Both the position numbers and the translations under genes were made by a program. The notes beneath the pieces are model-generated. The model saw only the letters and a program-made list of their open reading frames with translations, was not told the DNA's origin and did not search any database. From positions 1-47,077 of the IMG/VR virus record IMGVR_UViG_3300048080_000070: a DNA stretch of 47,077 bases. One strand, written 5' to 3'. The stretch is from a virus. Of this stretch, positions 1 through 43,973 are shown one piece after another (the first letter of the stretch is position 1; each line of letters starts with the position of its first letter).

Positions 1-127
1 CAAGTTGTTCCGGCTTGGGAACGCCTACTTCACGCATGGCCGCATCGTGTCAAAGTACCATGCGGCGCGGATGGTCGAGCATTACGGGGTGTGTATCTAC
101 TACGGCCACACACACGATGTCTCGCTC
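1..127. repeat. Terminal direct repeat identical to 46951-47077 (circular-assembly overlap or terminal redundancy)
   Basis: Bases 1-127 read identical to 46951-47077. The phosphoesterase reading frame is continuous across the join, since the 46950-bp unit length is divisible by 3. Confidence 0.9.
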
Positions 128-12567: not shown

Positions 12568-13671
12568 TTACTGCCAGTTCTGGTCGTCGTCCTGGGCGAC
12601 GCTCTTCGCTCTGGTCGTGGCGACCTTGATGATCTGTCCGGCGAGTGGGTTCAAGACGCCCCCGCTGCCGACGTAGATCTTCCAGGTCATGATTCCCACC
12701 AGCCCGTAGGGATCGTTCTTGTCGGGCTTGCTCGGCGGGATGTAGTTGACCTGCGGAACCCCGACACCCTTCGCGTGGCTGATGCGGGCGGCGTAGCCCT
12801 CACCGACCACCGGGCAACGGATGATCTGGTCCGCGGTGTCAACCGTGCCGGGGAAGTTGACCGACACGTTCTCGTCCTCGATGACTCGGATTCCGAAGAC
12901 TTCTCCGATCATCGCCCTCTCGAACTTGTCCTCACCCCGCAAGTCCCCCTTGAGGGCGATGTCCTGGAAGGTGGCGTCGGTTCTCAGGTCGCCGGCGATT
13001 TCCGGCGAGATGAGGCAGTCGTAGGCCCGGCGTGCGCCCATCCGACGACGGGCGCTCCGAGACCGCAGCCCGGTATAGGCGCTGTTGAACGTCTCGGCGG
13101 CGATCCGGTGCGACGGAATGTCGGCGTCCAGAGTCGCCTCGGTGAGTGTCTGCGACCCGTCCCCCCACGTCACGGCGACGGAGGTTGACGCGCCGAAGTA
13201 GGTCACGCTCGGCACCGTGCTGCTTTGGGAAGCCCCAAAGTCGGTTGTCCCGGTTGAAGAGACCATGATGTTGATGGCCCGCTGATCCAGCGTGTCCTTC
13301 GCGTTGTAAAGGAACCGCTCAGACAGCACCGGGACTGGGTTGGGCTCGGCCGTCATGATCGACTGCTCGGAAAGCTGCAAGTCGTTTCCGATGAGCCGGA
13401 GCGAATAGACAACCGAATCGACTGTGAACGACCGGCCCTTGAGTCCCGCGAAGGTCGCGTACCCAAGAAACTGCGAGATCCCGGCCACCTGCTTCGGGAA
13501 CGAGTTGATGCGGTGGAACTCGATGACCGTGCCTGCGTTGGCAGGAATAACCTGCGATTCCATCAGGTCAGTAGCCATCAGGTCGTTTTGGAGAATCCCG
13601 AGCAACTGCTGTTTCCAGTAGTTGCGAAGGATTGCCTCCGGTCCCCCGGAGGTAGTTATCAGAACTGCCAT
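12568..13671 (-). CDS. Major capsid protein (HK97-fold type inferred)
   Basis: 367-aa ORF immediately downstream of the scaffold-like gene. Size, position and overall sequence character are typical of an MCP. Confidence 0.7.
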   Translation of the reverse strand: MAVLITTSGGPEAILRNYWKQQLLGILQNDLMATDLMESQVIPANAGTVIEFHRINSFPKQVAGISQFLGYATFAGLKGRSFTVDSVVYSLRLIGNDLQLSEQSIMTAEPNPVPVLSERFLYNAKDTLDQRAINIMVSSTGTTDFGASQSSTVPSVTYFGASTSVAVTWGDGSQTLTEATLDADIPSHRIAAETFNSAYTGLRSRSARRRMGARRAYDCLISPEIAGDLRTDATFQDIALKGDLRGEDKFERAMIGEVFGIRVIEDENVSVNFPGTVDTADQIIRCPVVGEGYAARISHAKGVGVPQVNYIPPSKPDKNDPYGLVGIMTWKIYVGSGGVLNPLAGQIIKVATTRAKSVAQDDDQNWQ

Positions 13672-13698: not shown

Positions 13699-14610
13699 TT
13701 AGCGGAACTGTTCGACTGATTGCTTGAGAAGCGCGGACACATCGTCCCTGGTGAGCTTCGCCACATCAATCGTTTCCGCCTTGCCGGCCGGTTGTTTTCT
13801 TGGTCCAGTTGGCGATGCTGACGCAGCCTTGGCGGCTTCGCGCTGTACGCGCTGGACGCTTTGGACCGCCACAACAGCATCGCTCCTCTTGGTTTCCTTC
13901 ACGCTCTCACGTACCCCTTCCTGCCAGCGGTTGTGGGCGATACGGAGGAATCCGTCAAGGCTCTCGCGTGGCAACTCCTGTTCACGCGGGCTGAGCACTT
14001 TCACGGCCTCTGTACGCATCCACGTCCCGAACTCATCGGCCTCCGCACCAGTCATGCCCTTCTCGTTGAGGAAGCTGTTGAGGACGAGCGCCTGATCCTC
14101 CGTCGTGGCCGTTCGTGTCTCGGGCGGAACGTAGCTGGCGGACGACGGGTGCATCGTGCTTTCGAGTTCGCTGATGACCCGATCAACGTCCGCCTCCGGT
14201 ACACCCTGTTCGGAACGGCTGGCCCTGAGTGTCTTGAGGGCCTTGTCGGCGACGGTGGCCTTGCGGATATAGCGGTCGCGCAGGATGCGCTCGCTCTCCG
14301 CCTGTCGCTGCTGGAGCGCCTGGGTTCGGAGGTTGGCCTGCTCTTCGATCTGCTTGCCGCGGGCCTCCGAGTCGTCGAGACGCTTCTTGAGGGATACGAG
14401 GTCGTCGCTTTCGACAACGGCCCCTTCGGCACCTTCGGTTACTGCTGCTTCCGCCTGCACGGTCTCGGCTGCGGGTGCTTCTGCGGCCGGTGGCTCCGGT
14501 GCGGCGGTTGTGACCTGCGCAGACTCCGACTCGTCTGGATGCGCGAGTTGCTGGAACGCTGCGTTGGCCTGCTCTTCCGTGATCTTCTCGGTGCCGGCTG
14601 ATGCTGGCAT
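13699..14610 (-). CDS. Scaffolding protein
   Basis: 303 aa, rich in Ala, Glu and Gln with coiled-coil character. It lies between the portal-side genes and the MCP. Confidence 0.6.
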   Translation of the reverse strand: MPASAGTEKITEEQANAAFQQLAHPDESESAQVTTAAPEPPAAEAPAAETVQAEAAVTEGAEGAVVESDDLVSLKKRLDDSEARGKQIEEQANLRTQALQQRQAESERILRDRYIRKATVADKALKTLRASRSEQGVPEADVDRVISELESTMHPSSASYVPPETRTATTEDQALVLNSFLNEKGMTGAEADEFGTWMRTEAVKVLSPREQELPRESLDGFLRIAHNRWQEGVRESVKETKRSDAVVAVQSVQRVQREAAKAASASPTGPRKQPAGKAETIDVAKLTRDDVSALLKQSVEQFR

Positions 14611-14967: not shown

Positions 14968-15151
14968 TCTTGAGCCTCTTGAACGCAGCGCACAGTTCCC
15001 GCGCATCGACGGTCGGCAGGCCGGACGCACTCACCATGCGGATGAAGGCATCGAGCGGGACCGCCTTGATCATGGCCTCGAAACCCTTGATTGGCCTGAT
15101 AATCGTGCCCGGCTCATCGAATCTGCGATGTTTCACTCGCTCCTCCCTCAT
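14954..15151 (-). CDS. Hypothetical small protein
   Basis: 65-aa ORF. Its start overlaps the portal stop. Confidence 0.45.
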   Translation of the reverse strand: MREERVKHRRFDEPGTIIRPIKGFEAMIKAVPLDAFIRMVSASGLPTVDARELCAAFKRLKNDGA

Positions 15152-17115
15152 GAAGATTCACCGGCGCTCTGGGTTGGCGTTACGCCGCCGGTTGCGCCAC
15201 CGCTGCCGGGATTGCGGCGACCCTTGCTCGGTGGAGCGCCGCCACCCGCTCCGGCACCCGACGCTGGCCCAACCGTGTTCGAGAGTCCCATTGCCTGCAT
15301 CCGGGCCACGATCTCTTCCGGGTCTTTGATCATGAGGCGCTCGAGGCCCTTCACATCAAGCACCTCGTCGCCATAGCGGCGGACGAACTCGTGCCAATCG
15401 GTCGAAGCGAGCGTCAGCGGGTTCGACGCGAGAATGTTGGCGAAGTCGCGGAATTGGTTCGCCTTGCCAGCCTTGCTCAAGAGACTGCGCGCTCCAACAA
15501 ACGTGATGTCGGTCACTGCGTCGATGTCGAAGTACGATACCGACGTGGTTTCCATTTCGCCGATCCGCCGGAACACCTTGGCCTCGTCGTCGAGGTTGAT
15601 GTAGTAGAGGTCGTTCACCAGCCGCCCCATGACCGGCAATTCGTCGCGCTCGATGAGGACGGCGAGTTGGTCGGTGTTCTGGAGGGCCGCGGCTGTCACC
15701 GTATTGACCTCGGTGGCAGTTGTGTCCCCGCTCTGACGAATCTGGCCCTGCACCGGGTCGCGGGCGTTCATGGCGTTCCGCATGGTCTGGGAGATGACGT
15801 TGAGTGCGCCGACGGCAATCTGGAGGCCGCTGTAATCCTTGGGAAGCGGCACGAGTTGGTCCACCTCGCCCTGGAGAGTAAAGACCTCGCGTGGCCTGCG
15901 CGTCTCAAGGTCGTGGGCAAAGTTCGGCCCCTCGCCACCGCCGACAAGATAGTTTTGATACACCGACTCGATGAGCGCCTGCACGGTCAGGATGAGTTGC
16001 GTGTCGCTCACGTCTTGGAGATAGCGCACGACGGTCAGGGGCGAGAGGCCGTAGATGCCGCGGCCGGTCGGCAGAATCGTGATGGTTCCGCCCTGGATCT
16101 GACCGTTCCGCTGTGGCGACTGAATGGCTTGGATGCAGATACCATTGACCATGCGGATGACAACCGCGCCGTTGTGGTCGATCTTACCGATCTCCTCGGC
16201 GACTTCCTTCGGCACCATACCCTCGAACATCCAGCCACCGTAGTAGCCGTATTGCGCCACGTCCTTGACATCTTCGAGCGTCAGGTTCTCGGTGAGGAGT
16301 TTGGGGTGCTGCGACTGATCTGGGCCGGTGGCGTGTTCGTCCGGCTCGCCTTCCAGCACACGCGCAATGCCATCGGCATCCCAATTCTCGTCGCTCTTCA
16401 ACGCTTCCAGTGCCTCGTCTCGGATGCGGAACCGCTTGACCTTGTAGTGAAGTTGGTCGAAGCGGTTGGCGGACGGGTCGAACCATGTGTCGAACAGGTC
16501 GTCCGTTTCGAGCGTTGGGTCATCGTGGATTGGCACCTTGACGTTTTGGAGCACCGTCATGATGGCCCCGGTATCCGGGTTGCGGAGGAAGTCGCCCGGA
16601 TTCGTCGGGTCGGGCACGGGCATCCGGCGCGGAACCAGCCGGAGGTCGCGCCGCCAACGGGCGCTGTACGAGCCAAGCCCAAAGACGAGGCCGTCTCCGA
16701 TGGTCTCGAAGTTCGTGCGGAAGTTCCCCGGGCGCTCCAAGCCGTACATGACAAGTCGCCCGACTTTCTTGGAGGAGTCGATGTCCTCATCGCCCACCGG
16801 GTCGGCCTGAACGTAGTCACGGACGCCGAAGAGGCCCGCAAGCAGTAGTGCCCTGAGCGTATTGACCCCCTGATGCGATTCCGGCGTCTTGAGGAAGTTG
16901 ATGGGCGACATGTCGAAGCGGTTGGTAGTGCCACTCGCCATCGGATACGTCTTGTTTGGAGACCGCGAGTTAAGCGTGGATTCGACGCGATAGTTGGCCC
17001 AATTTTCGTACCACCCGGGCTCGTATTCTTTGCGAACGGAATTGGCCTGCTCGACGCAATCGTTGATGAAGTCCATTGCGGCCTGGTCGCGCTTGCGGAA
17101 GGCGAAGTTACTCAT
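15148..17115 (-). CDS. Portal protein
   Basis: 655-aa ORF upstream of the scaffold and MCP genes. Size and gene order are canonical for a portal. Confidence 0.65.
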   Translation of the reverse strand: MSNFAFRKRDQAAMDFINDCVEQANSVRKEYEPGWYENWANYRVESTLNSRSPNKTYPMASGTTNRFDMSPINFLKTPESHQGVNTLRALLLAGLFGVRDYVQADPVGDEDIDSSKKVGRLVMYGLERPGNFRTNFETIGDGLVFGLGSYSARWRRDLRLVPRRMPVPDPTNPGDFLRNPDTGAIMTVLQNVKVPIHDDPTLETDDLFDTWFDPSANRFDQLHYKVKRFRIRDEALEALKSDENWDADGIARVLEGEPDEHATGPDQSQHPKLLTENLTLEDVKDVAQYGYYGGWMFEGMVPKEVAEEIGKIDHNGAVVIRMVNGICIQAIQSPQRNGQIQGGTITILPTGRGIYGLSPLTVVRYLQDVSDTQLILTVQALIESVYQNYLVGGGEGPNFAHDLETRRPREVFTLQGEVDQLVPLPKDYSGLQIAVGALNVISQTMRNAMNARDPVQGQIRQSGDTTATEVNTVTAAALQNTDQLAVLIERDELPVMGRLVNDLYYINLDDEAKVFRRIGEMETTSVSYFDIDAVTDITFVGARSLLSKAGKANQFRDFANILASNPLTLASTDWHEFVRRYGDEVLDVKGLERLMIKDPEEIVARMQAMGLSNTVGPASGAGAGGGAPPSKGRRNPGSGGATGGVTPTQSAGESS

Positions 17116-17117
17116 GT

Positions 17118-17960
17118 TTAGCCAATCGAAAGCCTCTGCTCGTCAGTCGTCTGCTTGCCAGCAATTTCCATCCCCCGCCGTGCCTTGTAATACTTCTCGA
17201 CCTGCATAAGCGGCAATTCCTTCATGTGGTCGAACCAGACGAGCGGGTGGACGGCCAGCGTGAAGCCTGCGCGGTTTGCCTCGACCCCGAAGTTGATGTC
17301 CTCGCCGGCACGCACCTTGCGGTCGTCAAGATAGGTGAAGTAGAACGGCGCAGAGCCGAGGCCGTGTGGCTTCGGAGCGAACACCCGGCGACGGATGGCG
17401 ATACAGCCCGTGCCTACAATGGGCACGCGGTATGGCTGCTTCACGGATTCGTCTGGAATGGGCAGGTTATAGCACTTGCTCTCGTCGTTCACGCCATAGT
17501 TGTTGACCCGGTACATTGATTCGGCGTCCATGTTGCCGACCCACACGGGCGTCAGGCCGCTCACGATGTCCGCGTTCGTCACCGTGCAGAGTTGCCAGAA
17601 GTTCTCCGGGACGATCTGATCGTCGTCGATCATCATGAGCCAGTCGGCGTCGGTCTCGGCCAGGAACGTGTTGACGATGCAGTTGCGGGCGTAGTCCGGG
17701 CCGCGTTTGCCAGCCTCGATATGGATGCCGAACCGGAACGGGCACTCGGGGAGGTGAGAGGACGCCATTGCGCGGGCAAACATGAGCGCGATGGAATAGT
17801 TCACCTTGCCACTCACAGTCGGAACCGCGATGAAGACGGACGGCTTCCGACCCGGCTGAATAGACTCCCGGCGCGACCGCTCCTGCGCGATGTTGACGAT
17901 TGGAGCGGGGGCGGACGAAGCGAACGAGCGCGTCCGCTGGTGTCTGTGGCGTACGCTCAT
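17118..17960 (-). CDS. GT-A fold (family-2-like) glycosyltransferase embedded in the structural operon
   Basis: Motifs: VFIAVPT...; a DxD-type motif (LMMIDDDQIV); GTGCIAIRRRVF; EDINFGVEANRAGF. The start at 17960 is ATGA-coupled to the upstream stop. Confidence 0.7.
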   Translation of the reverse strand: MSVRHRHQRTRSFASSAPAPIVNIAQERSRRESIQPGRKPSVFIAVPTVSGKVNYSIALMFARAMASSHLPECPFRFGIHIEAGKRGPDYARNCIVNTFLAETDADWLMMIDDDQIVPENFWQLCTVTNADIVSGLTPVWVGNMDAESMYRVNNYGVNDESKCYNLPIPDESVKQPYRVPIVGTGCIAIRRRVFAPKPHGLGSAPFYFTYLDDRKVRAGEDINFGVEANRAGFTLAVHPLVWFDHMKELPLMQVEKYYKARRGMEIAGKQTTDEQRLSIG

Positions 17961-18151
17961 TTGAATCCGACCCTCTCTCTGCGGCAAACACGAAACTTCT
18001 CGCCGTCCACCTCGACGAACAGTAGCGTCTCGTCGTTGTATTCTTGAATGGTTAGCGTCCGATCCTTCGGCGGATCATCTGGCCAGAGACGATGAACATG
18101 CTTACCGCTCCATCCATCATCCCACGTTGCTTTGACGTTACGGCTTCCCAC
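17957..18151 (-). CDS. Hypothetical small protein
   Basis: 64-aa ORF, coupled at both ends. Confidence 0.5.
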   Translation of the reverse strand: MGSRNVKATWDDGWSGKHVHRLWPDDPPKDRTLTIQEYNDETLLFVEVDGEKFRVCRRERVGFK

Positions 18152-18356
18152 GCATCTTCCTCCGTCTCATGCGACTCGCACCAAACGCACCGGCAAGGGA
18201 TCCAAGGTTTCCACCAGCCCGCCCAATCGGAATGTTGGGCGGCGGCTCGGGAAGTTTATTAGGCGGCGGCAATCTCCTGATTGGCCCAGTCGCCTTCTTG
18301 CGTCGTCCGGCAAGTGCCCCGAGTGCTCCACTAAAGTAACTACCTGTGTGTGGCAT
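18138..18356 (-). CDS. Small, very basic Pro/Gly/Arg-rich protein
   Basis: 72-aa ORF of low complexity. Confidence 0.4.
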   Translation of the reverse strand: MPHTGSYFSGALGALAGRRKKATGPIRRLPPPNKLPEPPPNIPIGRAGGNLGSLAGAFGASRMRRRKMRGKP

Positions 18357-18367
18357 GGACTTCCTCC

Positions 18368-18727
18368 TCAGTATTCTCCGGCCATACCGATGGCGATTGT
18401 TGCCCCTCCAGAAAACCCCTGAACTAGAAATGTTGACGGTCTCGGGATAAGACTGGTTGCGTCAGCCGTCGTACCCATCAGGTAATTCCCATTGGCGGTT
18501 ATTGCCGTCACGCCAGCAATCACGAATGTTGCGCCTCCAATGGCCCCAACAAGTACGACTCCAAAGTGGCCGCCAGATCCAGTAGTAAACCCCGTCACCC
18601 TGGCGCCGAACACCGCACTAGAGAACAACTTAGCTGGAATCTCCGCTGATACAGGCCCACTTTCAGCACCCGAACCAGAGAGAATATTCTGAGTGCTACT
18701 CGCAATCACTCCATTCCACGACCCCAT
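18368..18727 (-). CDS. 'IGGATF' family paralog B (119 aa), unknown function
   Basis: Shares FGVVLVGAIGGATFVIAGVT...IPRPS...AGEY with the adjacent 118-aa gene. Confidence 0.6.
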   Translation of the reverse strand: MGSWNGVIASSTQNILSGSGAESGPVSAEIPAKLFSSAVFGARVTGFTTGSGGHFGVVLVGAIGGATFVIAGVTAITANGNYLMGTTADATSLIPRPSTFLVQGFSGGATIAIGMAGEY

Positions 18728-19084
18728 TCAGCTATAGTCCCCGGCCAGATAGACCGACGCCGTGAAGCCGGTGACGGTTCCAGCCGACTGGAACGCGACG
18801 TACATCGGGCGCGGGATGCCGAAGGTTGCGCCACCAGTCGTGCCGATGATTCTCGACGCCGCGGAGTTCACGGTTGTCACCCCGGCGATGACGAACGTTG
18901 CCCCACCGACGGAGCCAACGATTTGTACCCCGAAGGAGCCGGACACACCATCGAGTGTCTTGATCGCAAAGAGCCCCGTGCGAAACCACTTCTGCGGCAC
19001 TTCGGCTGAGACGGTGACATAGGACACCCCCCCAACCTGTAACGTCTGTGTGAGAGAGGCGAGATGTCCGTTGAACGATGCCAT
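18728..19084 (-). CDS. 'IGGATF' family paralog A (118 aa), unknown function
   Basis: Contains FGVQIVGSVGGATFVIAGVT...IPRPM...AGDYS. It abuts paralog B with no spacer. Confidence 0.6.
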   Translation of the reverse strand: MASFNGHLASLTQTLQVGGVSYVTVSAEVPQKWFRTGLFAIKTLDGVSGSFGVQIVGSVGGATFVIAGVTTVNSAASRIIGTTGGATFGIPRPMYVAFQSAGTVTGFTASVYLAGDYS

Positions 19085-19094
19085 ATCAGCCCCC

Positions 19095-19967
19095 TCAGTT
19101 CTTGAACATCGAGCCGCGCCCGGACTTCGCCATCACGACGACTCGGGCATCGGAGACTCCGCCAGCGTTCACCTCGGTCCAGATGATCGCGGTCGGGTTG
19201 GGTGACAGGCCGGCGACGTTGCTAGCGATGGCGACTTTCTCGCCGGCTACGTCCAGCGCACCGCCGGTTCCAGTCGTGGCGATACTGAACGTCGCCCCGC
19301 CGATGGTCCCGATGATGTCAACGTCGTGGGTGCCGGCCATGCTGACTCCCGCAACCGCCCAATAGAGCGCGTTGTCCCACAGGCGGATCCGGTGGAGACC
19401 CATCGTCGTGCCGGACGTGCCGAGCGTGAAGGTCGCGTCCTCGGTCATGCCGCGGCCATCGGTGAATGGCCCGCCTGCGAAGGAAGCGCCCCGAAGCATC
19501 GTGCCGTGGACCACGCGCTCCGCGGTTCCAGAACCCGACGCACTCAGCGCCCCGCGATACTGCTTGGCGAGAACGTGACACTGGAACCAGATGCCCCCGC
19601 CCGTTGCCGTCTGGTCAATGAAGATGTGGGTGGGGAGCGGCGCGGACGGACTGTTGTGCAGGTTGGTCAGGACGACCCGGCTGGCCGTCAGCGGGCCGAT
19701 ACCAGCCACGCGGGCGATTGGCATCCCGGTGTATCCGGTAATGGCGTCGGTCTCAATGGTGACGGTCCATGAACCCCCAGTCGCCCCACCAGCGACGCTC
19801 ACGCCCTGCAACACGAACATGCAGTCGTCCCACATGAGCGTGCCGCGGAGCGGGTTGTTCTGGCGGGTGAATGTTCCCGCCGAAGAGTCTCCAGCGGTCA
19901 GGCGTACATCTGCGTTCTGGTTCGTGACGCCCCAGATTCTTGCTTGGACTGTCTTGTCAAACCCCAC
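19095..19967 (-). CDS. Two-domain 'IGGATF' family protein (290 aa)
   Basis: The C-terminal half carries DVDIIGTIGGATFSIATTG...NPTAIIW. The N-terminal half shows a weaker copy of the same pattern (WTVTIETDAITGYTG...LPTHIFID). Confidence 0.6.
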   Translation of the reverse strand: MGFDKTVQARIWGVTNQNADVRLTAGDSSAGTFTRQNNPLRGTLMWDDCMFVLQGVSVAGGATGGSWTVTIETDAITGYTGMPIARVAGIGPLTASRVVLTNLHNSPSAPLPTHIFIDQTATGGGIWFQCHVLAKQYRGALSASGSGTAERVVHGTMLRGASFAGGPFTDGRGMTEDATFTLGTSGTTMGLHRIRLWDNALYWAVAGVSMAGTHDVDIIGTIGGATFSIATTGTGGALDVAGEKVAIASNVAGLSPNPTAIIWTEVNAGGVSDARVVVMAKSGRGSMFKN

Positions 19968-20014
19968 GTCTCTACCTCCTGTTTACGGACCTCTTCGGCG
20001 TCCGCTGGCCGTGC

Positions 20015-20371
20015 TCAGAATTTCCTACCTGCTCCGCCACTACCGCCACGACGGTACTTGGTTGTAGCATCACGAACATCCGGCGGACCAATTACGCCAC
20101 GGAAAAGTCTGGCGTACTTTGGAATTGCCTCAACAGCCCTTGCCGCCAGCCGACCAGGTGAGTAAGGACTGGCCGCCATACTTGATCCACCACCGGATCG
20201 GCCACGCCTCGTCACCTCGATGATCTTCTCGCCCAACTTGTACCAATTAGTGTCCCGATAAGTGGCGAGATGTTTGCCCTCTCCACTTGCCTTGAGCGCC
20301 AAGTCGGTTGAACTTGGACTTCTTGCGGCCGGGTTGAACTTCCCTCTTCGTCCAGACAGATCATCTGCCAT
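20015..20371 (-). CDS. Hypothetical basic Gly-rich protein
   Basis: The internal ATG at 20371 is ATGA-coupled to the TerL stop. 118 aa. Confidence 0.45.
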   Translation of the reverse strand: MADDLSGRRGKFNPAARSPSSTDLALKASGEGKHLATYRDTNWYKLGEKIIEVTRRGRSGGGSSMAASPYSPGRLAARAVEAIPKYARLFRGVIGPPDVRDATTKYRRGGSGGAGRKF

Positions 20372-22152
20372 CAATGCACCATGACCGCCGGCAGCCCCGT
20401 GTACCTGGACACGAACTGTATCGGCGGACGCTCGTACTTCTCTTCGATCACCGGGATGGCGACCGGAACCCATCGGGACAGAACCTCATCGGCGTTCGCG
20501 TTCGCCATCATGTCGAGCGTGTCGCGCTTGACCGACGCGGGATACTCGTTCACCGTCGTTCTCAGAACAGAGAGTGCGGCCTTGTTGATCGTGCTCAGGT
20601 AGTACCAGTGGCCCATCTTGGCCTGGCCGGCCACGGTTGAAATGCGGTCGTTCTTGGCCCGCTTGCTCCACGACTTCGCGTCGATGAAGCGCGGCTGGTT
20701 CGTCGGGCGGGCCTCGCGTGGCGTGGACTTCCAGATCCGCTTCATGAACCCGACCATCGGCTTGTCGGCCTGCTGCTCGATGACGTAGAAGTGGGTGTGC
20801 CAGACGCGCATCATACGGAGGATTTCGTCGGCCCCTTCGTCGGACTCCATGTCGTTGCTGACGTTGAGGTCGAGGAGCACGTTGTCGATTTGACCAGCGA
20901 TTGAATATGAGTCAATGCAGCCGATGGCAGCATCAGCGCCCTCTTGGTGGTTGTCATCGCCTTTCCATGCCGGATCACAATACACGGCGCGAAACTTCGG
21001 GAGATTGCCGAACCGCTTGGCGAACTCTTCCGGGGTGAGCGGCTGGAAGAACTCCCACTGTAGGGCCTGCTCGCCGGTCAGGGTCGGGTCGAGTTGGTAC
21101 TGGAGATACCAGAATCGGTCGGTCCCGCGGCGGCGGATCTCGTTCGCCCGCTCCTTCGCCAACGCTTCAACGGATAGGCGCGGAATCGTCGGAAAGTTCG
21201 GCTTGTTGTCGTCGGTGAGCGCGGGCGTGCGGATGACGTAGTAGCGCGGGGTGCCGTCCTCATGCTTCTCCTCGATCATCGGCTTATAGAGGCTCTGGAT
21301 GTGGTAGGGCGTCCCCGCGACCCACTCGCGGGTCCAAGGCGGGGCGTTCAGCTGGCGCAACTGGTCGTAGCGGTCCTTCAAGTCCTCGCGGACGGATTCG
21401 GAATTGCGCGAGTCCTCCGCTTCCCAGTCGTCCAGCCCCTTGTAGTTGTAGCCCGATCCGGCTTTCCTGGATAGGGCGGCATCGGCATTCATGTTCTTCT
21501 CGTCGGCCATGAACTGGAGATCGCGGCACGGCCAGTTCCAGTGCCCCTTCTCGCCCCACTCGGCCAAGGGGATGGCGAAGTTGGCTGGCCCGCCTGTCAC
21601 GGTCTCGCAGCCGTCCCCGAAATGCTTGCGGATATATGGGTTGTGCCGGTTCATGTTCTTGATGGATTCGAGGGCGCCAGTGGCGCGGAACTCCAGGTTG
21701 TGCGAGTAGAGAAACAGGAGGTCGAGATCTTCGATGATCTTGTGCCGCTTCGGCAGCCAGTCGAAAGCCATCTTCAAGAAGAACGACTTGAGCCCCCGGC
21801 GCGGGTACTGGTGATGGATGCCGTCGTATTTGTCTAACTGGCCTGCCGCCATCAGCACAACGGTCTTTGCCACTTCGTCACGGTGCCGCGGCGGGTGCAG
21901 AAGCTTCCGGAACCGCGGCTGCTTGTACCAAGTCTGGAGCGCGTAGTGCCAGAACGGGTTATGCTCGACCGCAACGTCCGCCACGGGCCGGCCGACAATG
22001 TGCTGGAACACAATGCTATGGGGCTCCTTGCCGTACTTGGCGAGGAGTTCGGCCCCAAGCATGATGGAAAGGTCGCGCTCCACCGACACGGCGGCGGCGA
22101 GCAGCACGTTGGGGTCGATGTCAGGCGTTCTTGCGCTGGTCGTTTCCGTCAC
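20371..22152 (-). CDS. terL: Terminase large subunit
   Basis: 593 aa with a P-loop-like YPRRGLKS. The C-terminal half has RNaseH-like acidic motifs (AVYCDPAW and DTLDMMANA). It sits at the head of the structural operon. Confidence 0.7.
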   Translation of the reverse strand: MTETTSARTPDIDPNVLLAAAVSVERDLSIMLGAELLAKYGKEPHSIVFQHIVGRPVADVAVEHNPFWHYALQTWYKQPRFRKLLHPPRHRDEVAKTVVLMAAGQLDKYDGIHHQYPRRGLKSFFLKMAFDWLPKRHKIIEDLDLLFLYSHNLEFRATGALESIKNMNRHNPYIRKHFGDGCETVTGGPANFAIPLAEWGEKGHWNWPCRDLQFMADEKNMNADAALSRKAGSGYNYKGLDDWEAEDSRNSESVREDLKDRYDQLRQLNAPPWTREWVAGTPYHIQSLYKPMIEEKHEDGTPRYYVIRTPALTDDNKPNFPTIPRLSVEALAKERANEIRRRGTDRFWYLQYQLDPTLTGEQALQWEFFQPLTPEEFAKRFGNLPKFRAVYCDPAWKGDDNHQEGADAAIGCIDSYSIAGQIDNVLLDLNVSNDMESDEGADEILRMMRVWHTHFYVIEQQADKPMVGFMKRIWKSTPREARPTNQPRFIDAKSWSKRAKNDRISTVAGQAKMGHWYYLSTINKAALSVLRTTVNEYPASVKRDTLDMMANANADEVLSRWVPVAIPVIEEKYERPPIQFVSRYTGLPAVMVH

Positions 22153-22282
22153 CGTTGGTGGCTATCACGAATGGCTGCAACGCGAAGTTGAGTTTCCGGC
22201 ACATCATCCGTCGAAGGTCGGGTGTGTCGCCGTGGAGGGATGCGGCGGCGATGGCCTCCAGCAAGACCTCCTCTGGTGTCAT
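22121..22282 (-). CDS. Hypothetical 53-aa protein
   Basis: MTPEEVLLEAIAAASLHGD... ATGA-coupled to the upstream stop. It overlaps the TerL start by 32 nt and is below the ORF-track cutoff as a separate gene. Confidence 0.3.
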   Translation of the reverse strand: MTPEEVLLEAIAAASLHGDTPDLRRMMCRKLNFALQPFVIATNGDGNDQRKNA

Positions 22283-23001
22283 CAATGCTCGGTTTCCTCC
22301 GTGGCGCTGCCGGGCGCGAGCGCAATGGCGTCCTGCGTGGCGAGAATGGACGCGGCTGCCTCTTCCATGATGGCCTCGCGGGCGCTGTCCTTCTGCTCGG
22401 ATGGCAGCCCGAAGCCCTTGACGGCCTGAGCCACCATGCGGAAGCATTGGCGGAAGGCCTGGGCGGTGATGGGCTCGCCCTGCCACGGCTGGCTGTCCAG
22501 GTGGGCGCGCATCTGGCCGGCGATGCCACGACGACCGAGCGCGAACAGGTCGTTGAGGGACGCGATGGCCTCGCGGGCCTCCTGGCGGACACCCTCGACG
22601 GCGGCCTTAGCCTCCTGTTTGAGGGCCTTGATGTCGAAGGTCAGCTTGGCCTGAGCCTGCTTGATCTCCTGTTCACGGCGGCCAGCATCGTTGAGGGCAG
22701 AGTTACAGGTGGCCTGCTTGCGCTTGTAGGCTTCCGTGGCACGCCGGAGATACTGGGCCCCGGCGTTGGTCTGTCGTGGCGGAATTGGGATAGAGGCAAG
22801 AAGTGATAGCTCCTGTCTGTACGAGGGTAGTGGGTAGGTTTTGCCGAAATCCTCGGCGCGGAAACCCTCGGGCAGCAGGAGCCATACCTTGCCAACGCGG
22901 GCGGACTCAACGTCCAGGCGCAGGGACTCTATGGTGTGGCGCGAGGGGCTTGGCTTTGGCGGCGCTTCCTCACCCATAGGCATTTTGTCACCCATGACCA
23001 T
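22282..23001 (-). CDS. First gene of the leftward operon, a coiled-coil protein (small terminase candidate by position only)
   Basis: I trimmed ORF 22282..23325 to the ATG cluster at 23001/22995/22983, because the upstream part overlaps the promoter region. Confidence 0.45.
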   Translation of the reverse strand: MVMGDKMPMGEEAPPKPSPSRHTIESLRLDVESARVGKVWLLLPEGFRAEDFGKTYPLPSYRQELSLLASIPIPPRQTNAGAQYLRRATEAYKRKQATCNSALNDAGRREQEIKQAQAKLTFDIKALKQEAKAAVEGVRQEAREAIASLNDLFALGRRGIAGQMRAHLDSQPWQGEPITAQAFRQCFRMVAQAVKGFGLPSEQKDSAREAIMEEAAASILATQDAIALAPGSATEETEH

Positions 23002-23032
23002 GCATACTACCACAAGCGCATAGTCACTGTGA

Positions 23033-23060
23033 AGTATAACGCATATCTGACATCTTGCAA
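23033..23060 (-). promoter_or_regulatory. Sigma70-like promoter for the leftward structural operon (TTGCAA-N16-TATACT)
   Basis: Read on the minus strand: -35 at 23060-23055 and -10 at 23038-23033. It lies in an AT-richer divergent intergenic region. Confidence 0.5.
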
Positions 23061-23071
23061 GTCGTATATGC
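23041..23071. promoter_or_regulatory. Imperfect 31-bp palindrome (GCATATCTGAC-N9-GTCGTATATGC), operator candidate
   Basis: The arms match at 9 of 11 positions. The palindrome is centred on the -35 of the leftward promoter and lies next to the HTH gene. Confidence 0.4.
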
Positions 23072-23089
23072 GAATGGTCAGTCGCTACC

Positions 23090-23118
23090 TTGACGTTCCG
23101 TTGCGAATGGCGTACACT
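23090..23118 (+). promoter_or_regulatory. Sigma70-like promoter for the rightward HTH and glycosylation operon (TTGACG-N17-TACACT)
   Basis: Hexamers and spacing were read directly from the sequence. It lies about 25 nt upstream of the GTG at 23144. Confidence 0.5.
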
Positions 23119-23143
23119 TGGTTGCGTGGGCGGAGAGTTGGAC

Positions 23144-23338
23144 GTGCTGGTGAGGCGGATCGAGGCGGCCAGGCTTGAGCGGTTGCTATCCAAGACCGCC
23201 CTTGCCGCGCTCGCCGGGGTCAGCCGACAGAGGGTAAGCGAGTTGCTGAATGGCCGGAACAGGTCGCTATCCACGCTGCGGGCGCTGAAATTCGTGCTGT
23301 GGCCACCGGAGGAATTGAAACCCAATGCCCCGCGTTGA
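23144..23338 (+). CDS. XRE/Cro-like helix-turn-helix transcriptional regulator
   Basis: RIEAARLERLLSKTALAALAGVSRQRVSELLNGRNRSLSTL fits an HTH_XRE pattern. A GTG start at 23144 is preferred over the ORF-track start at 23090. Confidence 0.6.
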   Translation: MLVRRIEAARLERLLSKTALAALAGVSRQRVSELLNGRNRSLSTLRALKFVLWPPEELKPNAPR

Positions 23339-24074
23339 GCGCAACGCCGAAGTCACGCTGGTCGTACTCGTCTACCGCTCTCTGCGGTGGCTTGACTGGT
23401 GCATGGAGGGGGTCGATTCAATTAGAACCGACACGCGGTATCGGTGGCTAGTCGTGGCGAACGACGCGACCGAGGAGGTTCGGGCCGACCCGCGCATCTC
23501 GGTGGACTTCCGCAACGATGACCCCGGCGAGTTCTACATCAATCGCGTGTATCGAGCCTGGAACGAGGGTGTCCTGAACGCGCCGACACCGTGGGTCGTA
23601 ATGCTCAACTCCGACATGTTTGGAAGCGACGGGTGGATCGACGAACTCATGGATGTGAAATGCAAGACGCCAAAACTCGTGCCGACTTCTCTGCTTATCG
23701 AGTCTGGCCGCCTGCCGTCTGGGATGCCAGAATACGTCAGGGATTTCGGCAAGAACCCCGACGAGTTCAAGGCAGATGAGTTCAAGGCTCACGCCGCGTC
23801 CATCGCCAAGCCTGCCATACGGCAGGAAGGGATGGGGGCGATGGGAGTCGGGACGCTTGTATTCCCGCAGACGGAACCAGGCCGCCTCTACATGCCCATC
23901 CTCGTAGACCGCCAGGAGTTCATGGACGTGGGCGGCTACCCGGAGGGCAATCCACCGGGCACGACCGGCGACAAGGATCTCGTCCGGCGGTATGCGGAGG
24001 CCGGATTCACACACGTCACGGCGCTGGGGAGCGTGGTCTATCATTGTCAAATCGGTGAGCAGACATGGCCCTGA
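23325..24074 (+). CDS. GT-A fold (family-2-like) glycosyltransferase
   Basis: Motifs: VTLVVLVYRS, VVANDAT, YRAWNEGV, VVMLNSDMF and DKDLVRRYAEAGF. Confidence 0.6.
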   Translation: MPRVERNAEVTLVVLVYRSLRWLDWCMEGVDSIRTDTRYRWLVVANDATEEVRADPRISVDFRNDDPGEFYINRVYRAWNEGVLNAPTPWVVMLNSDMFGSDGWIDELMDVKCKTPKLVPTSLLIESGRLPSGMPEYVRDFGKNPDEFKADEFKAHAASIAKPAIRQEGMGAMGVGTLVFPQTEPGRLYMPILVDRQEFMDVGGYPEGNPPGTTGDKDLVRRYAEAGFTHVTALGSVVYHCQIGEQTWP

Positions 24075-24667
24075 CGGACTGCGGCTTCGCCCACGACACG
24101 TCGATAGACTACGAGGCCATTGGCACAATTCTTGGTCACTGTGAGTCCTTGGCCTATGTTGGTGCCCTGTGCGCCTATGAGGCCGGCGTATTGGCGGATC
24201 GGTTGTCGTGCAAATACACAACCGTCATCGAGGCCAGTCCATACAACTTCTCCAGCGTTACATTGTCTGGGCCGTGTAGGCAGAAGAACTCCGTTGCACT
24301 ATGCGCGATCATCTCCGACACCAACGGACTTGGCAGGCTCTACATCACAGAGCATCCGTTTGCGTGCAGCGTTGTACCATTAAGCACCAATTCGGTGCGA
24401 GTCCCCATGCTGCGGCTGGACACCCTGTTGAAAGACCGCCCCCCGGAGTTCCTGGTCATCGATGCGGAGGGAGCGGCCTTGGCGGTTCTGCGCGGAGCGG
24501 CCGGGATAGCCAATAGTATCCGAGCCGTTCTGGTCGAGACCGAGGACGACGCCCACCGCATCGGCGATGTGCGCGATGATGTCTTTACCTATCTGAGGAA
24601 TGGCGGTTATGCTGTGCGGCACGATCCTGGCGGAAAACAAACAAACTCCCTGTGGGTTCGGCCCTGA
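24065..24667 (+). CDS. FkbM-family SAM-dependent methyltransferase
   Basis: EFLVIDAEGAALAVLRGAAGI...AVLVETE, plus an upstream YVGALCAYEAG motif, is typical of Methyltransf_21/FkbM. Confidence 0.6.
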   Translation: MALTDCGFAHDTSIDYEAIGTILGHCESLAYVGALCAYEAGVLADRLSCKYTTVIEASPYNFSSVTLSGPCRQKNSVALCAIISDTNGLGRLYITEHPFACSVVPLSTNSVRVPMLRLDTLLKDRPPEFLVIDAEGAALAVLRGAAGIANSIRAVLVETEDDAHRIGDVRDDVFTYLRNGGYAVRHDPGGKQTNSLWVRP

Positions 24668-25572
24668 TGGGCACGGTTATAGCCATGACCGTTCACGACC
24701 GCACCGACGAGGTCTTGGACGCCGTATTCGCGGGAATCAGCCTTCCAGGCAACAGACCCGACAGGATAGTGGTGTGCTTCGACCGGGCGCGCCAAGAGAC
24801 AATAGCCAAGACACAGAAGAATTGCCACACTCTCAATATCCCACTTGACTACACGGTCCTCGATGACCCGGCCATCGGGCCACGCTGCCCGTCAATGGCC
24901 TGGAACAGGGCGCTCGGTCTCGTCACGGAAGATTACGCCTTCTGCATTTCATCTGATGTTATTTTGGGGCCGCACAGCGTTGGAATGGCTTATCACCTCG
25001 TCAAGGAACGTCCGGAAAGCATCGTTTGCGGCAAGGCGGATCACTGTGGCAGTTCATACGTTTGGCAATGGCTTCTAGCCAACGGAGAAAAGGTAACACA
25101 CAGAACGATGACCTGCTCTATTGCGGGCAGACCGCTCGGCTTCGACTGGCTCCTTCCCATGAAACTTGTCCGAGAAATCGGAGGATATGACGAAGCCTTC
25201 ATGAACGGACTGTGCTATGAAGATGACGATTTCACAATTCGCATGTGGCGGGCGGGGGCCGACATCATCTTCTGTGACGATGTTTCCGGGATTCACTTGG
25301 AACACAAACGGGATCACCTGAAAGACGCCGACGGCAGGGTGGCCCATAACGAAAGGTTGTTTAAGGATCGCCACGGGGACATAAACTATCTCAGGGATGC
25401 CAAGTTCCAGAGATATATATGGAAAGATCCGAATGTGCCGGGGTTGAGCGTTTGGTTCCATGTTGAAGACCCAAACACCCCACAGAAGCTCGCCACTGCC
25501 CAGCAACTCTATGGGGTTGATCAGCCATGGAGGGCGATAATTCCCCACGATCCGGCGGAGATTAAGCCATGA
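24667..25572 (+). CDS. GT-A fold glycosyltransferase (paralog of 29141-29923)
   Basis: Motifs AWNRALGL...FCISSDVIL and GGYDEAFMNGLCYEDDDFTIRMWRAGADI. The ATG at 24667 overlaps the upstream TGA. Confidence 0.65.
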   Translation: MGTVIAMTVHDRTDEVLDAVFAGISLPGNRPDRIVVCFDRARQETIAKTQKNCHTLNIPLDYTVLDDPAIGPRCPSMAWNRALGLVTEDYAFCISSDVILGPHSVGMAYHLVKERPESIVCGKADHCGSSYVWQWLLANGEKVTHRTMTCSIAGRPLGFDWLLPMKLVREIGGYDEAFMNGLCYEDDDFTIRMWRAGADIIFCDDVSGIHLEHKRDHLKDADGRVAHNERLFKDRHGDINYLRDAKFQRYIWKDPNVPGLSVWFHVEDPNTPQKLATAQQLYGVDQPWRAIIPHDPAEIKP

Positions 25573-25742
25573 GCCGCGTAATGTTCTACTGTCCAGTCTG
25601 TGGGCGCACCATACTCCACACATACCCAAATTATTACGAGCCGAATACAATTTGCAACTGCGCTTTCCCTGTGCAAGTGACCGGGATGGTCAAAGTGCCA
25701 ATGTCAGACCCGGTGCCCTTGGGAAACCTGAAAATAACATGA
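25569..25742 (+). CDS. 57-aa Zn-ribbon mini-protein
   Basis: MSRVMFYCPVCGRT...ICNCAF. ATGA-coupled at both ends. Below the ORF-track cutoff. Confidence 0.5.
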   Translation: MSRVMFYCPVCGRTILHTYPNYYEPNTICNCAFPVQVTGMVKVPMSDPVPLGNLKIT

Positions 25743-26731
25743 GACGCCTCCTCGTGAACGATCAACTCTCCGCGCTGCCGGATCACCGGACGTTCTGGCA
25801 CGATCTGATGGAGTGGTTTGACATGGAATTCGCCGGAGCAGACTTCGGTGGACTTGTCAAAGAAGCCGATGAGCGTATCGATTTCTTCCTTCAAGACGGC
25901 TACGCTGGAGATGACATCCCTCGGTTGATTATCCGCAACGCAACGTGGTTCGGGCCGCTCAAGGCGAGCGCAACCGTCCCGACCATCTCGCTCTTGCAGG
26001 ACATTATCACCGAGGGGCCGCAGCGCCACATGCAGTTGGCTGTTATCGCTTCATCCAAAGCGACGGTGTTTAACTCCATCTTCACGGCCGACAAATACAT
26101 ACCACACCCGGAGGACGAGTCCACAACACTCGACATGCCACACAGAGTCATCCCGCTCCCCGTTGACTTCACCCTCTTCGAGCCAGGCAACGCGATGGGC
26201 CTGCAACAGTCGCTCTCGCTTCCCGACGGCTGCGTCTGCTGGATTGGAGCGTCGGTTGGGGCCGCCGGGGCCGTCAAGGGGTGGGACATCTTCGTGCGGA
26301 TTGCCAGGCTCAACCCGGACATTCCATTCGTGGGGGTGTTCAAGGATGCTGCGCCGGAGTACGGGCCGCCCAACCTGCGGACGTTCGTGAGGGCCACCCA
26401 CGAGGAGTTGGTCAAGGTCATCGGGGCTTGTCGCGTCGGACTCTGTACCTCACGCATGGAGTCGCAGCACCTCGCCGGCATCGAGATGGGGGCGTGTGGG
26501 CTCCCGATGGTCGCGCCGCCCGTGGGGTGCTATTGGAAGCGGGAGGACATGCCGGGCATTCTGGTTGGCGAGCCCACGCCGGAGTCCTATGCCACCGCAC
26601 TCCGGGCCATGCTCAAGCAGCCGGGCGACCCGCAGGCGATACGGGAGTATTGGCAACGGGAGTATGACAAGCCTGTTATAAGAGCGGCGTGGACGACACT
26701 TATCGAGGAGGTCGAGTGCTCTGGTCGATAA
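25739..26731 (+). CDS. GT-B fold (group-1/GT4-like) glycosyltransferase
   Basis: KGWDIFVRIA and ESQHLAGIEMGACGLPMVAP form an EX7E-type motif. I used the internal ATG at 25739 of ORF 25652..26731. Confidence 0.65.
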   Translation: MRRLLVNDQLSALPDHRTFWHDLMEWFDMEFAGADFGGLVKEADERIDFFLQDGYAGDDIPRLIIRNATWFGPLKASATVPTISLLQDIITEGPQRHMQLAVIASSKATVFNSIFTADKYIPHPEDESTTLDMPHRVIPLPVDFTLFEPGNAMGLQQSLSLPDGCVCWIGASVGAAGAVKGWDIFVRIARLNPDIPFVGVFKDAAPEYGPPNLRTFVRATHEELVKVIGACRVGLCTSRMESQHLAGIEMGACGLPMVAPPVGCYWKREDMPGILVGEPTPESYATALRAMLKQPGDPQAIREYWQREYDKPVIRAAWTTLIEEVECSGR

Positions 26732-27342
26732 TGATCGCCGCGATTCCAGAGAGGTTTCATTCCGTCCAGCCACTACTCTATTCGCTCTTGGAGGCGCAGT
26801 CCGTGGCGCGGATGCCAGACGTTGAACTGCTCTACTTCATGGATAGCCGCAAGCGGCCGGTTGGGGCGAAGCGGAACGATCTGCTGGCGATGGCCCGTGG
26901 CGAGTACGTCTCGTTCATCGACGACGACGACGAGGTGGCGAGCGACTATGTGCGCCGCATCCACGACACCATCGTATCGGCCAGGAAGTCCGATCCGCGG
27001 GCCGACGTGATCTGCTTCCCGCAGCGGGCCACGCTCAAGCCCCACGGCGTCACGCACGAATGTACCTACTCGCTGGCGCATTGGCGGGACCGGAAGCCGG
27101 AGGAGCGACGGCAACTCGCGCATGGCTCGGACGCCAATACGCTGCTGTGGAGCGGCCCGCCGGCCCACACGATGGCATGGAGACGCGAGACTATCGGTGA
27201 CACGCGGTTCCCCAACAAGACCTTCGGCGAGGATGTGGATTGGGTGAACGCGGTATGCGCCAAGGCCACGACGGAGATTGTGCTGACAGGCGCGCCGCTA
27301 TACTTCTACAAGTTCGATGAAGAGAGGACGGCGACACGATGA
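26731..27342 (+). CDS. GT-A fold glycosyltransferase
   Basis: MIAAIPERF..., GEYVSFIDDDDEV (DxD motif) and GEDVDW. The start overlaps the upstream stop (TAATG). Confidence 0.65.
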   Translation: MIAAIPERFHSVQPLLYSLLEAQSVARMPDVELLYFMDSRKRPVGAKRNDLLAMARGEYVSFIDDDDEVASDYVRRIHDTIVSARKSDPRADVICFPQRATLKPHGVTHECTYSLAHWRDRKPEERRQLAHGSDANTLLWSGPPAHTMAWRRETIGDTRFPNKTFGEDVDWVNAVCAKATTEIVLTGAPLYFYKFDEERTATR

Positions 27343-27542
27343 AACCAAAGTATTGTTCCATGTGCGGCCACGAAACGGTCTTACAACCGAGCGGAACGTT
27401 CAATTCTCAAACCGGCGAACCGGACAGCTGGGCGTATTGTAATAACCCGGGCTGTGAAGCGTTTAGAGCATCGCGGTCTGCAAATAGCGTGTTCGGGGCG
27501 GTGGGCGATTTCTTTCGTTCATTCAGGACGCCGATGCGATGA
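27339..27542 (+). CDS. 67-aa Zn-ribbon mini-protein
   Basis: CSMCG...CNNPGC. ATGA-coupled at both ends. Confidence 0.55.
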   Translation: MKPKYCSMCGHETVLQPSGTFNSQTGEPDSWAYCNNPGCEAFRASRSANSVFGAVGDFFRSFRTPMR

Positions 27543-28660
27543 GTCAGTCCGGTATCTACTCAGAATCCAAGATGATTTGGTGGTTTGCCCGCGACCGTGG
27601 GTTGCCAGCGGCCCCAAAACAGGTACAGCTGATTTTATCCGATCTGTGCAATCAGGACTGCCACTTCTGCGCCTACCGCATGAGCGGCTACACGTCGAAT
27701 GAGTTGTTTGTGGGCGACTCGAAGCAGGCCGCCTACGGCCACAGCAATCCCGTCCGGTGGATACCGACGGAGCGGGCTCTGAAACTAGTGGACGAAATCA
27801 AGGAGGTCGGGGCGCTCTCGATACAATTCACAGGCGGCGGCGAGCCAACCGTGCATCCAGAGTGCGATAAGATATTCTCACGCGCCTTGGAGCACGGGCT
27901 GAGGTGTGCCCTGGTAAGCAACGGCGTGAAGTGGAGTGCGGACCTTATCAAGAACCTGTTGCCACGCTTCGATTGGGTTAGGGTGTCGGTGGATGCCGGC
28001 GATGCGGCTTCGTATTCCCGCATCCGCCGCACACCAACGGCACATTGGGGCCGCGTGTGGGCTAATATCAAGGGTCTGGCCGAAGCTATTCGGTTGGGCG
28101 AAACGCACACCAACCTCGGCATTGGATTCGTCGTCACGCCGGACTCCTACCGCGAGATACCAGAGTTTGCCGCGGTCGCTGCGAAGAGCGGAGCGCACAA
28201 CATCCGCTTCTCCGCCATGTTCAGCCCGGAGGACGAGAAGCCGTTCGTGGGCATCTATGACATGGTGCGCGTATTCATCGACAAGGCGCGCCGGGTCCAT
28301 GAGACTGACACGTTCAAGGTCCACGACAACTTCGGGTCCAGGTTCGACGACCTGCGCCAGCACGCGCCGGACTACTCGTTCTGTTCGTACCAGCACTATA
28401 CGGCCTATGTCGGGGGCGACATGAACGCCTACCGCTGCTGCGTTCTGGCCTACAACAAGCGCGGGCTGGTGGAGGGCGGGAACCTCAAGGAGCGGTCGTT
28501 CACGGAGTTCTGGAGGTCGCCGGAGCGTCTGGCCGACATGAACGCGCTTGACGCCAAGGGATGCGAGCGGTGCCAGTTTAACGTGAAAAATCGGCAGATG
28601 CTCTACGTCATGGGGAATACCGAGTCGGATACCACATCGAGGCACATCGAATGGCCGTAG
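27539..28660 (+). CDS. Radical SAM enzyme with a C-terminal Cys cluster (SPASM/twitch-like?)
   Basis: Contains CNQDCHFC (CxxxCxxC), GGGEP, and C-terminal FCSYQ...RCCVLAYN...GCERCQFN. Confidence 0.75.
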   Translation: MSQSGIYSESKMIWWFARDRGLPAAPKQVQLILSDLCNQDCHFCAYRMSGYTSNELFVGDSKQAAYGHSNPVRWIPTERALKLVDEIKEVGALSIQFTGGGEPTVHPECDKIFSRALEHGLRCALVSNGVKWSADLIKNLLPRFDWVRVSVDAGDAASYSRIRRTPTAHWGRVWANIKGLAEAIRLGETHTNLGIGFVVTPDSYREIPEFAAVAAKSGAHNIRFSAMFSPEDEKPFVGIYDMVRVFIDKARRVHETDTFKVHDNFGSRFDDLRQHAPDYSFCSYQHYTAYVGGDMNAYRCCVLAYNKRGLVEGGNLKERSFTEFWRSPERLADMNALDAKGCERCQFNVKNRQMLYVMGNTESDTTSRHIEWP

Positions 28661-28821
28661 AGAAGCGCAGAAAACTCTATTCGGTGGTCGTTCCATACGA
28701 CTGCACGCAACAAATAATTCTCGAAGCGTTCGAGGCTAACAGAAAATTCAGAGCAGAGTACGCAAGGACGCGCCGAGCCAACAGGAGGAACTATCGAGTC
28801 AAGCCAAGGAAACCGCAATGA
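28651..28821 (+). CDS. 56-aa strongly basic protein
   Basis: MAVEKRRKLYSVVVPYDCTQQ...RRANRRNYRVKPRKPQ. It overlaps both neighbours and is below the ORF-track cutoff. Confidence 0.35.
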   Translation: MAVEKRRKLYSVVVPYDCTQQIILEAFEANRKFRAEYARTRRANRRNYRVKPRKPQ

Positions 28822-29138: not shown

Positions 29139-29140
29139 AC

Positions 29141-43972: not shown

Positions 43973-43973
43973 A

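Follow-up and report, generated by a model that had tools for sequence, protein, structure and literature searches.

Bbp16 of the Bordetella podophage BPP-1 is a jelly-roll cement protein of 140 residues; its dimers are held together by the F strands, and it attaches to the HK97-type capsid shell (PMC3863775). Proteins that carry two jelly rolls in a single chain fall into four recognised families, PNGase F, PHM, DUF2961 and the double jelly-roll (DJR) capsid proteins, and in both the DJR major capsid proteins (MCPs) and DUF2961 α-helices follow strands F and F' (PMC8812541). Here we compare with these systems a module of three tandem genes in a virus genome, IMG/VR record IMGVR_UViG_3300048080_000070, analysed over its whole length of 47,077 nucleotides (the window). 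The genes lie between those for the large terminase (TerL) and the portal, and encode a two-domain protein of 290 residues (p290) and two single-domain proteins of 118 and 119 residues (p118 and p119). The three proteins are true paralogs that together hold four copies of one domain, for which structure prediction of p290 and p118 gives an all-β jelly-roll fold. A p290-type gene followed by one small gene is the invariant core pair of the whole uncultured clade to which the window belongs.

All of the genes concerned lie within a single compact late operon of the minus strand. The p290 gene (19095-19967) begins with a GTG codon that has AGGAGG 8 nt upstream. The collection's own gene call, P0005 (246 aa), begins 44 codons late and misses 19836-19967; this start must be too late, since more than 175 homologues of 285-307 aa span 100 % of the 290-aa protein from the GTG. 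The N-terminal domain of p290 (aa 1-138, 19554-19967) contains the sequence LPTHIFID (19614-19637) and finishes with AKQYRG. It is joined by a variable linker (aa 139-150, 19518-19553) to the C-terminal domain (aa 151-290, 19098-19517), which contains IGGATF (19287-19304) and NPTAIIW (19179-19199) and ends in AKSGRG and a basic tail. In distant homologues there are insertions immediately after the linker. The p118 gene (18728-19084, with VGGATF at 18893-18910) starts 10 nt past the p290 stop codon, and the ATG of the p119 gene (18368-18727, with IGGATF at 18524-18541) directly follows the p118 stop with a 0-nt gap.

The two small proteins are 43 % identical over their full length (E 2e-23). 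BLASTP comparison of p290 with the small proteins aligns only the IGGATF stretch, with E values of 1e-3 to 1e-4, and the more distant relationships emerge from profile comparisons. The small family matched columns 195-267 of the p290-family alignment (50 sequences) in hhalign with a probability of 91-93.5 % (E 1e-6 to 2e-7). A longer small subfamily of ~143 aa matched the p290 C-terminal domain at 93.7 % (E 2e-7) and the short subfamily at 99 %. Within p290 the two halves matched each other at 85 % (E 6e-6), pairing WD with WD, PLPTHIFID with PNPTAIIW, and AKQYRG with AKSGRG. These comparisons were controlled with 60 column-shuffled and 60 block-shuffled versions: the true scores were 39-46 and the shuffled scores 12-18 ± 2-4, with a maximum of 29. 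The match between the small family and the p290 N-terminal half is weak (score 20-24), yet above every control. Hidden Markov models of the p290 family and of the small family also cross-match each other in several loci. A preliminary description of this region, made from the sequence alone, had proposed that p118 and p119 are homologs, that their signature recurs in the C-terminal half of p290 and that LPTHIFID marks a diverged copy in its N-terminal half; all of this is borne out, as is the count of four copies in three genes.

The models were obtained by AlphaFold2 with family alignments, and fold matches were sought with Foldseek. The p290 model (predicted local distance difference test score, pLDDT, 84.4; predicted template modelling score 0.84) comprises two β-sandwiches with strands spanning residues 6-135 and 152-281, separated by a disordered linker at residues 139-149 with pLDDT below 50. 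The p118 model (pLDDT 89.4) is a single jelly roll of 8 strands, so the fold that the preliminary description had put forward as a guess is the one predicted. We take p290 to be a fusion of two diverged jelly rolls, and p118 and p119 to be single jelly rolls of the same origin. In the model, IGGATF makes up the tight turn (GG) between strands E and F, which form a hairpin, together with the start of strand F. Strand F is the edge strand of the CHEF sheet in a jelly roll.

Matches to known structures were generic throughout. For p118 they were single jelly rolls at template modelling (TM) scores of ~0.45-0.53, among them nanovirus and bromovirus capsid proteins, PirA, nucleoplasmin, the carbohydrate-binding modules (CBMs) CBM29, CBM11 and that of AlgX, and Ena pili. 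For p290 the two-jelly-roll matches were PNGase (TM 0.37), a Bacteroides hydrolase (0.34), PHM (0.32) and PM2 P2 (0.25), of which PNGase, PHM and PM2 P2 superposed on the model with a root mean square deviation of ~10 Å; further matches were IBDV VP2, allantoicase and bicupins. DSSP assignment of the p290 model found no helix of four or more residues, hence none after strands F or F'. Because of the low TM scores and the lack of helices after strand F, we refer to p290 as a tandem jelly-roll protein and do not assign it to the DJR group.

None of the three proteins matched a family in Pfam, PHROGs, NCBIfam or PADLOC, and the 87 family members taken together (24 + 63) gave no PHROG match, decoration and cement families included. 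Profile searches against PDB sequences returned nothing or compositional noise (Fab heavy chains, E at least 5e-4). Among 50,697 GenBank phages there was no tblastn match for p118, p290, the portal or TerL, and no megablast match for the module region. The preliminary description, which had failed to recognise the family, was therefore not overlooking a known one in these libraries. No relative was found in 185,579 GTDB species genomes, which leaves no prophage and no clue to the host. By contrast with these collections, soil, groundwater, sediment and freshwater metagenomes hold the more than 175 members of the p290 family at 57-78 % identity, on contigs of 43-49 kb, together with ~70 members of the small family. 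An exhaustive profile search with the p290 family of 1.84 billion representatives matched only 37 clusters, the full-length members of which are all two-domain proteins of 270-330 aa, and showed no informative domain fusions; two other hits, P0225 and P0226, were judged noise. The clade that carries the module is uncultured and podovirus-like, and apparently lytic. One Hainich groundwater contig (L036; ERZ1292629 'length-43229-cov-493') records ~493x coverage in its name, indicating that the clade can be very abundant there and that the site would be practical for metaproteomics or isolation.

Gene order was surveyed in 42 loci with enough downstream sequence, the window included; some of these are the same contig from two collections. 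In 42/42 a small jelly-roll gene comes 6-25 nt behind the p290-family gene. The gene order is constant: small terminase, TerL, p290, small protein, 0-2 tiny basic open reading frames (ORFs), glycosyltransferase (GT), portal, scaffold and MCP. The position of the tiny basic ORFs within the module varies among relatives. The order is kept in the distant relative L021, in which TerL is only 45 % identical; its GT is present further downstream, after an inserted 654-aa ORF. This ORF (L021 3731-5695) lies between the small gene and the GT, and has a signal-like N-terminus, β-helix-like repeats and a Cys-rich C-terminus. The 41 other loci each have exactly one small copy, and the window alone has two. 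The tandem expansion put forward in the preliminary description is not mainly a local event, as the core pair is present in 41/41 other loci; only the p119 gene of the window is extra.

A survey of copy number in related contigs, which the preliminary description had suggested, also bears on the origin of that extra gene. The p118 protein is 54-57 % identical to the single-copy orthologues. The nearest relative of p119 is P0167, from another metagenome (61 %), compared with only 43 % for its neighbour p118, and p118 and p119 were never nearest neighbours in 200 identity bootstraps. The P0167 gene lies on L023, a 744-bp groundwater contig (2-698), behind an orthologue of p118 (77 %); this is the only other two-copy case found. 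The L023 pair shows that a two-copy sublineage exists, and that its second copy evolves faster. Judged by these identities, p118 is orthologous to the one small gene that related phages carry, and p119 belongs to a separate, faster-evolving lineage and is no fresh duplicate, although it retains the near-invariant residues of the small family. The GC content at third codon positions (GC3) is 0.49 for p119, 0.75 for p118 and 0.79-0.84 for the core late genes; values of 0.49-0.57 are found for p119, for the 72-aa and 64-aa ORFs that follow it and for a 118-aa basic ORF upstream of p290. This low GC3 relative to the core late genes suggests that the p119 gene and the two tiny ORFs behind it were acquired by recombination from a lower-GC relative. 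The 118-aa basic ORF likewise looks imported from such a source.

The genes are conserved across the clade, so that a lack of conservation, which the preliminary description had named as counting against its reading, does not apply. In comparisons with three full-length relatives p290 is 60-75 % identical, the MCP 66-76 %, the portal 71-78 %, the GT 67-74 % (43 % in the distant L021) and the scaffold 48-55 %, and the small protein is 29-47 % identical. p290 is therefore conserved as strongly as the portal and MCP, and the rate of evolution is two to three times higher in the small protein paired with it. Among 24 representatives of the p290 family, down to 24 % identity, W46, G78, P112, K135, G224, P258 and G285 are invariant and K5, R138, G139, G190, W197, D198, T226 and K281 nearly so. 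A W / PxP / AKxxRG motif recurs at equivalent places of both domains (W46/W197, P112/P258, K135/K281 and RG), which suggests that the two domains may make equivalent contacts. No set of Asp, Glu or His residues is invariant in these 24 sequences, and His104, His114 and His214 are kept among close members and lost in distant ones. With histidines not conserved and W, P, K, R and G residues invariant, the pattern looks structural and not catalytic. In all three proteins G, S, T, A and V are abundant (S+T 18-22 %, G 15-18 %) and charged residues few (6-13 %), a composition that resembles exposed virion β-proteins and also p430 and p755, tail-type proteins of the same genome. The module protein sequences show no visible signal peptide or membrane segment.

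The first and last 127 nt of the window (1-127 and 46951-47077) are identical and in direct orientation, which identifies it as a complete assembly of 46,950 bp that closes into a circle. As the preliminary description had it, the module follows TerL; after it come two small ORFs (72 and 64 aa), a GT2-like gene and then the portal gene. Upstream of TerL is a 347-aa ORF read from a TTG codon (22282-23325); it aligns with the 222-239-aa genes in relatives from about residue 125 onward and not before, so that the true gene is likely to be shorter, and it probably encodes the small terminase; a family search gave no match. TerL itself (20371-22152; phrog_38, E 1.7e-20) marks the upstream boundary of the module. 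Between it and p290 is the 118-aa basic ORF (20015-20371), the ATG of which overlaps the TerL stop and the N-terminus of which, MADDLSGRRGKF, resembles MMADDLKGRRKRMG of a 99-aa ORF in relative L004. Downstream of p119 come the 72-aa ORF (18138-18356), very basic (isoelectric point 12) and with a strong GGAGG site, and the 64-aa ORF (17957-18151; GC3 0.57), the TGA of which overlaps the GT start. A small basic gene resembling the 72-aa ORF occupies the same position in L001 (96 aa) and in L004.

The GT gene (17118-17960) encodes a GT-A/GT2-like enzyme (Pfam Glyco_tranf_2_3, E 6.6e-4; phrog_1574, E 1.6e-10) with no sequence relative in the PDB by profile search. Its most likely start codon is the ATG at 17960, giving 280 aa as in relatives and an ATGA overlap with the 64-aa ORF stop; the TTG at 17987 given in a mechanical ORF list is probably not the real start. 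The portal gene (15148-17115), the downstream boundary of the module, was assigned from a faint SU10_portal Pfam match in one relative and a weak phrog_1216 match, and the genes at this position in relatives are 71-78 % identical. It is followed by a scaffold-like gene (13699-14610, 303 aa) and the MCP gene (12568-13671; phrog_1357, E 7e-18). A promoter and terminator scan of 17000-22500 gave nothing above shuffled sequences. On the opposite strand, diverging from this operon, is a glycosylation island (23325-29923) with an FkbM methyltransferase, three GT2-like enzymes, one GT1/4 enzyme and a radical-SAM/SPASM enzyme; the relatives L006 and L007 bear a similar island. Adjacent tRNA-His(GTG) and tRNA-Tyr(GTA) genes lie at 43898-44059 on the plus strand.

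We tentatively favour the reading that the module encodes a virion-surface accessory complex of an unnamed jelly-roll family, located on the surface of the capsid or at the capsid vertices, and consider this a real possibility that falls somewhat short of an even chance. p290 and the small protein would be made together and bind each other, most likely by β-sheet augmentation at IGGATFxIA, the conserved edge strand with its E-F hairpin. Their complex would lie outside the HK97-type capsid, or at the vertices or neck, as a decoration that stabilises the particle or contacts host glycans, with p290 as the anchor, the small protein as the exposed variable part and p119 as a second variant of that exposed subunit; the neighbouring GT may modify the jelly-roll proteins. 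The tight placement in the late operon, with spacings of 0-10 nt, and the pairing of the two genes in 42/42 loci support this reading, as do the predicted fold, the strong conservation of p290, the structural look of the invariant residues, the composition and the precedent of Bbp16. The roles proposed in the preliminary description (decoration, fibre or glycosylation substrate) are all compatible with the fold, composition and operon position.

Several points weigh against a place on the capsid. The searches of GenBank phages give no cultured relative of the clade, and the lack of any PHROG match extends, as noted, to decoration and cement proteins. Genes for decoration proteins usually adjoin the capsid gene and do not stand between terminase and portal, and in the window a 137-aa gene right after the MCP gene is an alternative decoration candidate. 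Bbp16, the cement protein with the same fold, has no profile similarity to the small family (hhalign probability 0.4 %, E 0.15). The constant GT neighbour and the CBM- and PNGase-like folds fit a glycan-related role outside the virion equally well, and the oligomeric state and partner binding are features that we infer.

The rapid evolution of the small protein (29-47 % identity, the fastest in the module) would also suit an adhesin associated with the tail or neck, in which the small jelly roll serves as the tip that binds a receptor or glycan, and p290 attaches it to the particle. Typical of receptor-binding proteins, too, are the two small subfamilies (~120 and ~143 aa) and the second, horizontally exchanged copy; the composition is fibre-like, and in L021 the β-helix-like 654-aa ORF is inserted right after the small gene. 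However, the larger, lower-GC3 genes of the 3' part of the operon (p398, p403, p504, p430 and p755) are more usual candidates for receptor binding, the module is far from the tail genes, and no adaptor or collar motif was found in it. We regard an adhesin as unlikely, with perhaps one chance in its favour for every several against.

To much the same degree we doubt a role outside the virion together with the adjacent GT, whereby the proteins would serve in the infected cell as lectin- or CBM-like binders, as carriers or as glycosylation acceptors. A GT follows the pair in every case, L021 included, and the genome has at least four further GTs, the FkbM methyltransferase and the radical-SAM/SPASM enzyme; the proteins are S/T-rich, and the top fold matches include PNGase, SGBP-B, the AlgX CBM, CBM29 and CBM11. 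These matches are generic, with TM scores of 0.25-0.53, and they are accompanied neither by a CBM or lectin match in Pfam nor by a conserved acidic or aromatic binding constellation beyond the structural W, P and G residues. A structural part would fit better with how strongly p290 is conserved and with its constant position in a head-assembly operon, and a glycosylation substrate can in any case also be a virion protein.

Further explanations are more improbable again. The position between terminase and portal, co-transcription with the scaffold and MCP genes and strong conservation could be accounted for by assembly factors, acting in portal incorporation, procapsid nucleation or packaging and absent from the mature particle. 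Known phage chaperones and scaffolds are mostly helical, though, a rigid tandem β-sandwich with a fast-evolving paralog as partner would be atypical among them, and a 303-aa scaffold-like gene is already present. A more speculative form of the capsid-surface reading, to which we give about as little credence, has p290 forming pseudo-hexameric trimers and the small protein pentamers that overlay the HK97 hexamers and pentamers as a second, outer jelly-roll layer. If this were true, a tailed phage would have independently built a double jelly roll by duplication and fusion and kept the single-domain paralog, and the step from single to double jelly roll that has been proposed for the PRD1/adenovirus lineage would have a living model; the layer might be glycosylated by enzymes of the phage itself, as in chloroviruses. 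It is very improbable that p290 is a two-jelly-roll enzyme of the PNGase F, PHM or bicupin type, for although Foldseek has PNGase (TM 0.37), PHM (0.32), allantoicase and bicupins among its top matches, the TM scores are low, Pfam gives no match, and the three histidines are lost in distant members with no invariant Asp/Glu/His set to replace them.

Set beside known systems, the virion-surface reading finds its nearest parallel in Bbp16. Both Bbp16 and p118 are small (~120-140 aa) eight-stranded jelly rolls (BIDG/CHEF) of short-tailed phages with an HK97-fold capsid, and the edge strand F through which Bbp16 dimerises corresponds to the most conserved part of the present family. The Bbp16 dimers occupy two-fold positions of the capsid. 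The two nevertheless differ in that Bbp16 is not among the top 50 Foldseek matches of p118 and has no fused two-domain paralog, and in that bbp16 adjoins the capsid gene bbp17 whereas the present genes lie ~4.7 kb upstream of the MCP gene, between TerL and the GT and portal genes. The epsilon15 protein gp10 is similar to Bbp16. The Syn5 knob proteins gp55 and gp58 were considered as analogues and set aside, as their folds differ.

The DJR proteins resemble p290 in having two jelly rolls in one chain of ~270-300 aa; the DJR capsid proteins form trimers that serve as pseudo-hexameric capsomers. PRD1-like viruses have a single-jelly-roll penton protein, and in a similar manner the p290 gene is adjoined by a gene for a ~120-aa single jelly roll. 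The resemblance to DJR proteins is limited by TM scores of only 0.25-0.37 and by the want of helices after the F strands, and the halves of p290 are still similar in sequence, which implies a duplication younger than in the DJR families. The genome also differs, with an HK97-type MCP, a portal and a terminase and no FtsK/HerA ATPase; a packaging enzyme that is a terminase (phrog_38) argues against a PRD1-type virus. CBM29, CBM11 and the AlgX CBM share the same generic fold (TM ~0.45-0.53), and here a GT is a neighbour; the present proteins differ from them in having no Pfam CBM match and no identifiable conserved ligand-binding residues. The metal ligands of cupins, bicupins and PHM have no counterpart, there being no conserved His/Glu set.

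Caulobacter phage Percy gp52 (L020 42789-43670), a hypothetical protein of 293 aa, was matched by p290 in BFVD with a probability of 0.98. Like p290 it is of similar length, rich in G, A, T and S, encoded just downstream of TerL and a tandem β-sandwich. As a relative it was rejected (hhalign probability 1 %, TM 0.24, no sequence link); in this autographivirus it may be an analogue, and is just as uncharacterised.

The p290 family marks a widespread phage clade of soil, groundwater and sediment and is among the best-conserved genes of that clade. It is without a name in any library searched, and an assigned function would annotate hundreds of metagenomic genomes. If the proteins are on the particle and are modified by the large set of glycosylation genes, virion glycosylation and jelly-roll decoration would extend to a new phage group. 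Since the duplication and fusion are still visible, with the unfused paralog adjacent, the locus is also useful for thinking about the origin of double jelly-roll proteins. No description of a fused tandem form with an unfused paralog between terminase and portal came up in a literature search. Jelly-roll accessory proteins of tailed phages are a known kind, represented here by a family new to all the libraries searched; what appears to be undescribed is the variant in which a fused tandem and its retained unfused paralog hold a fixed place between the terminase and portal genes.

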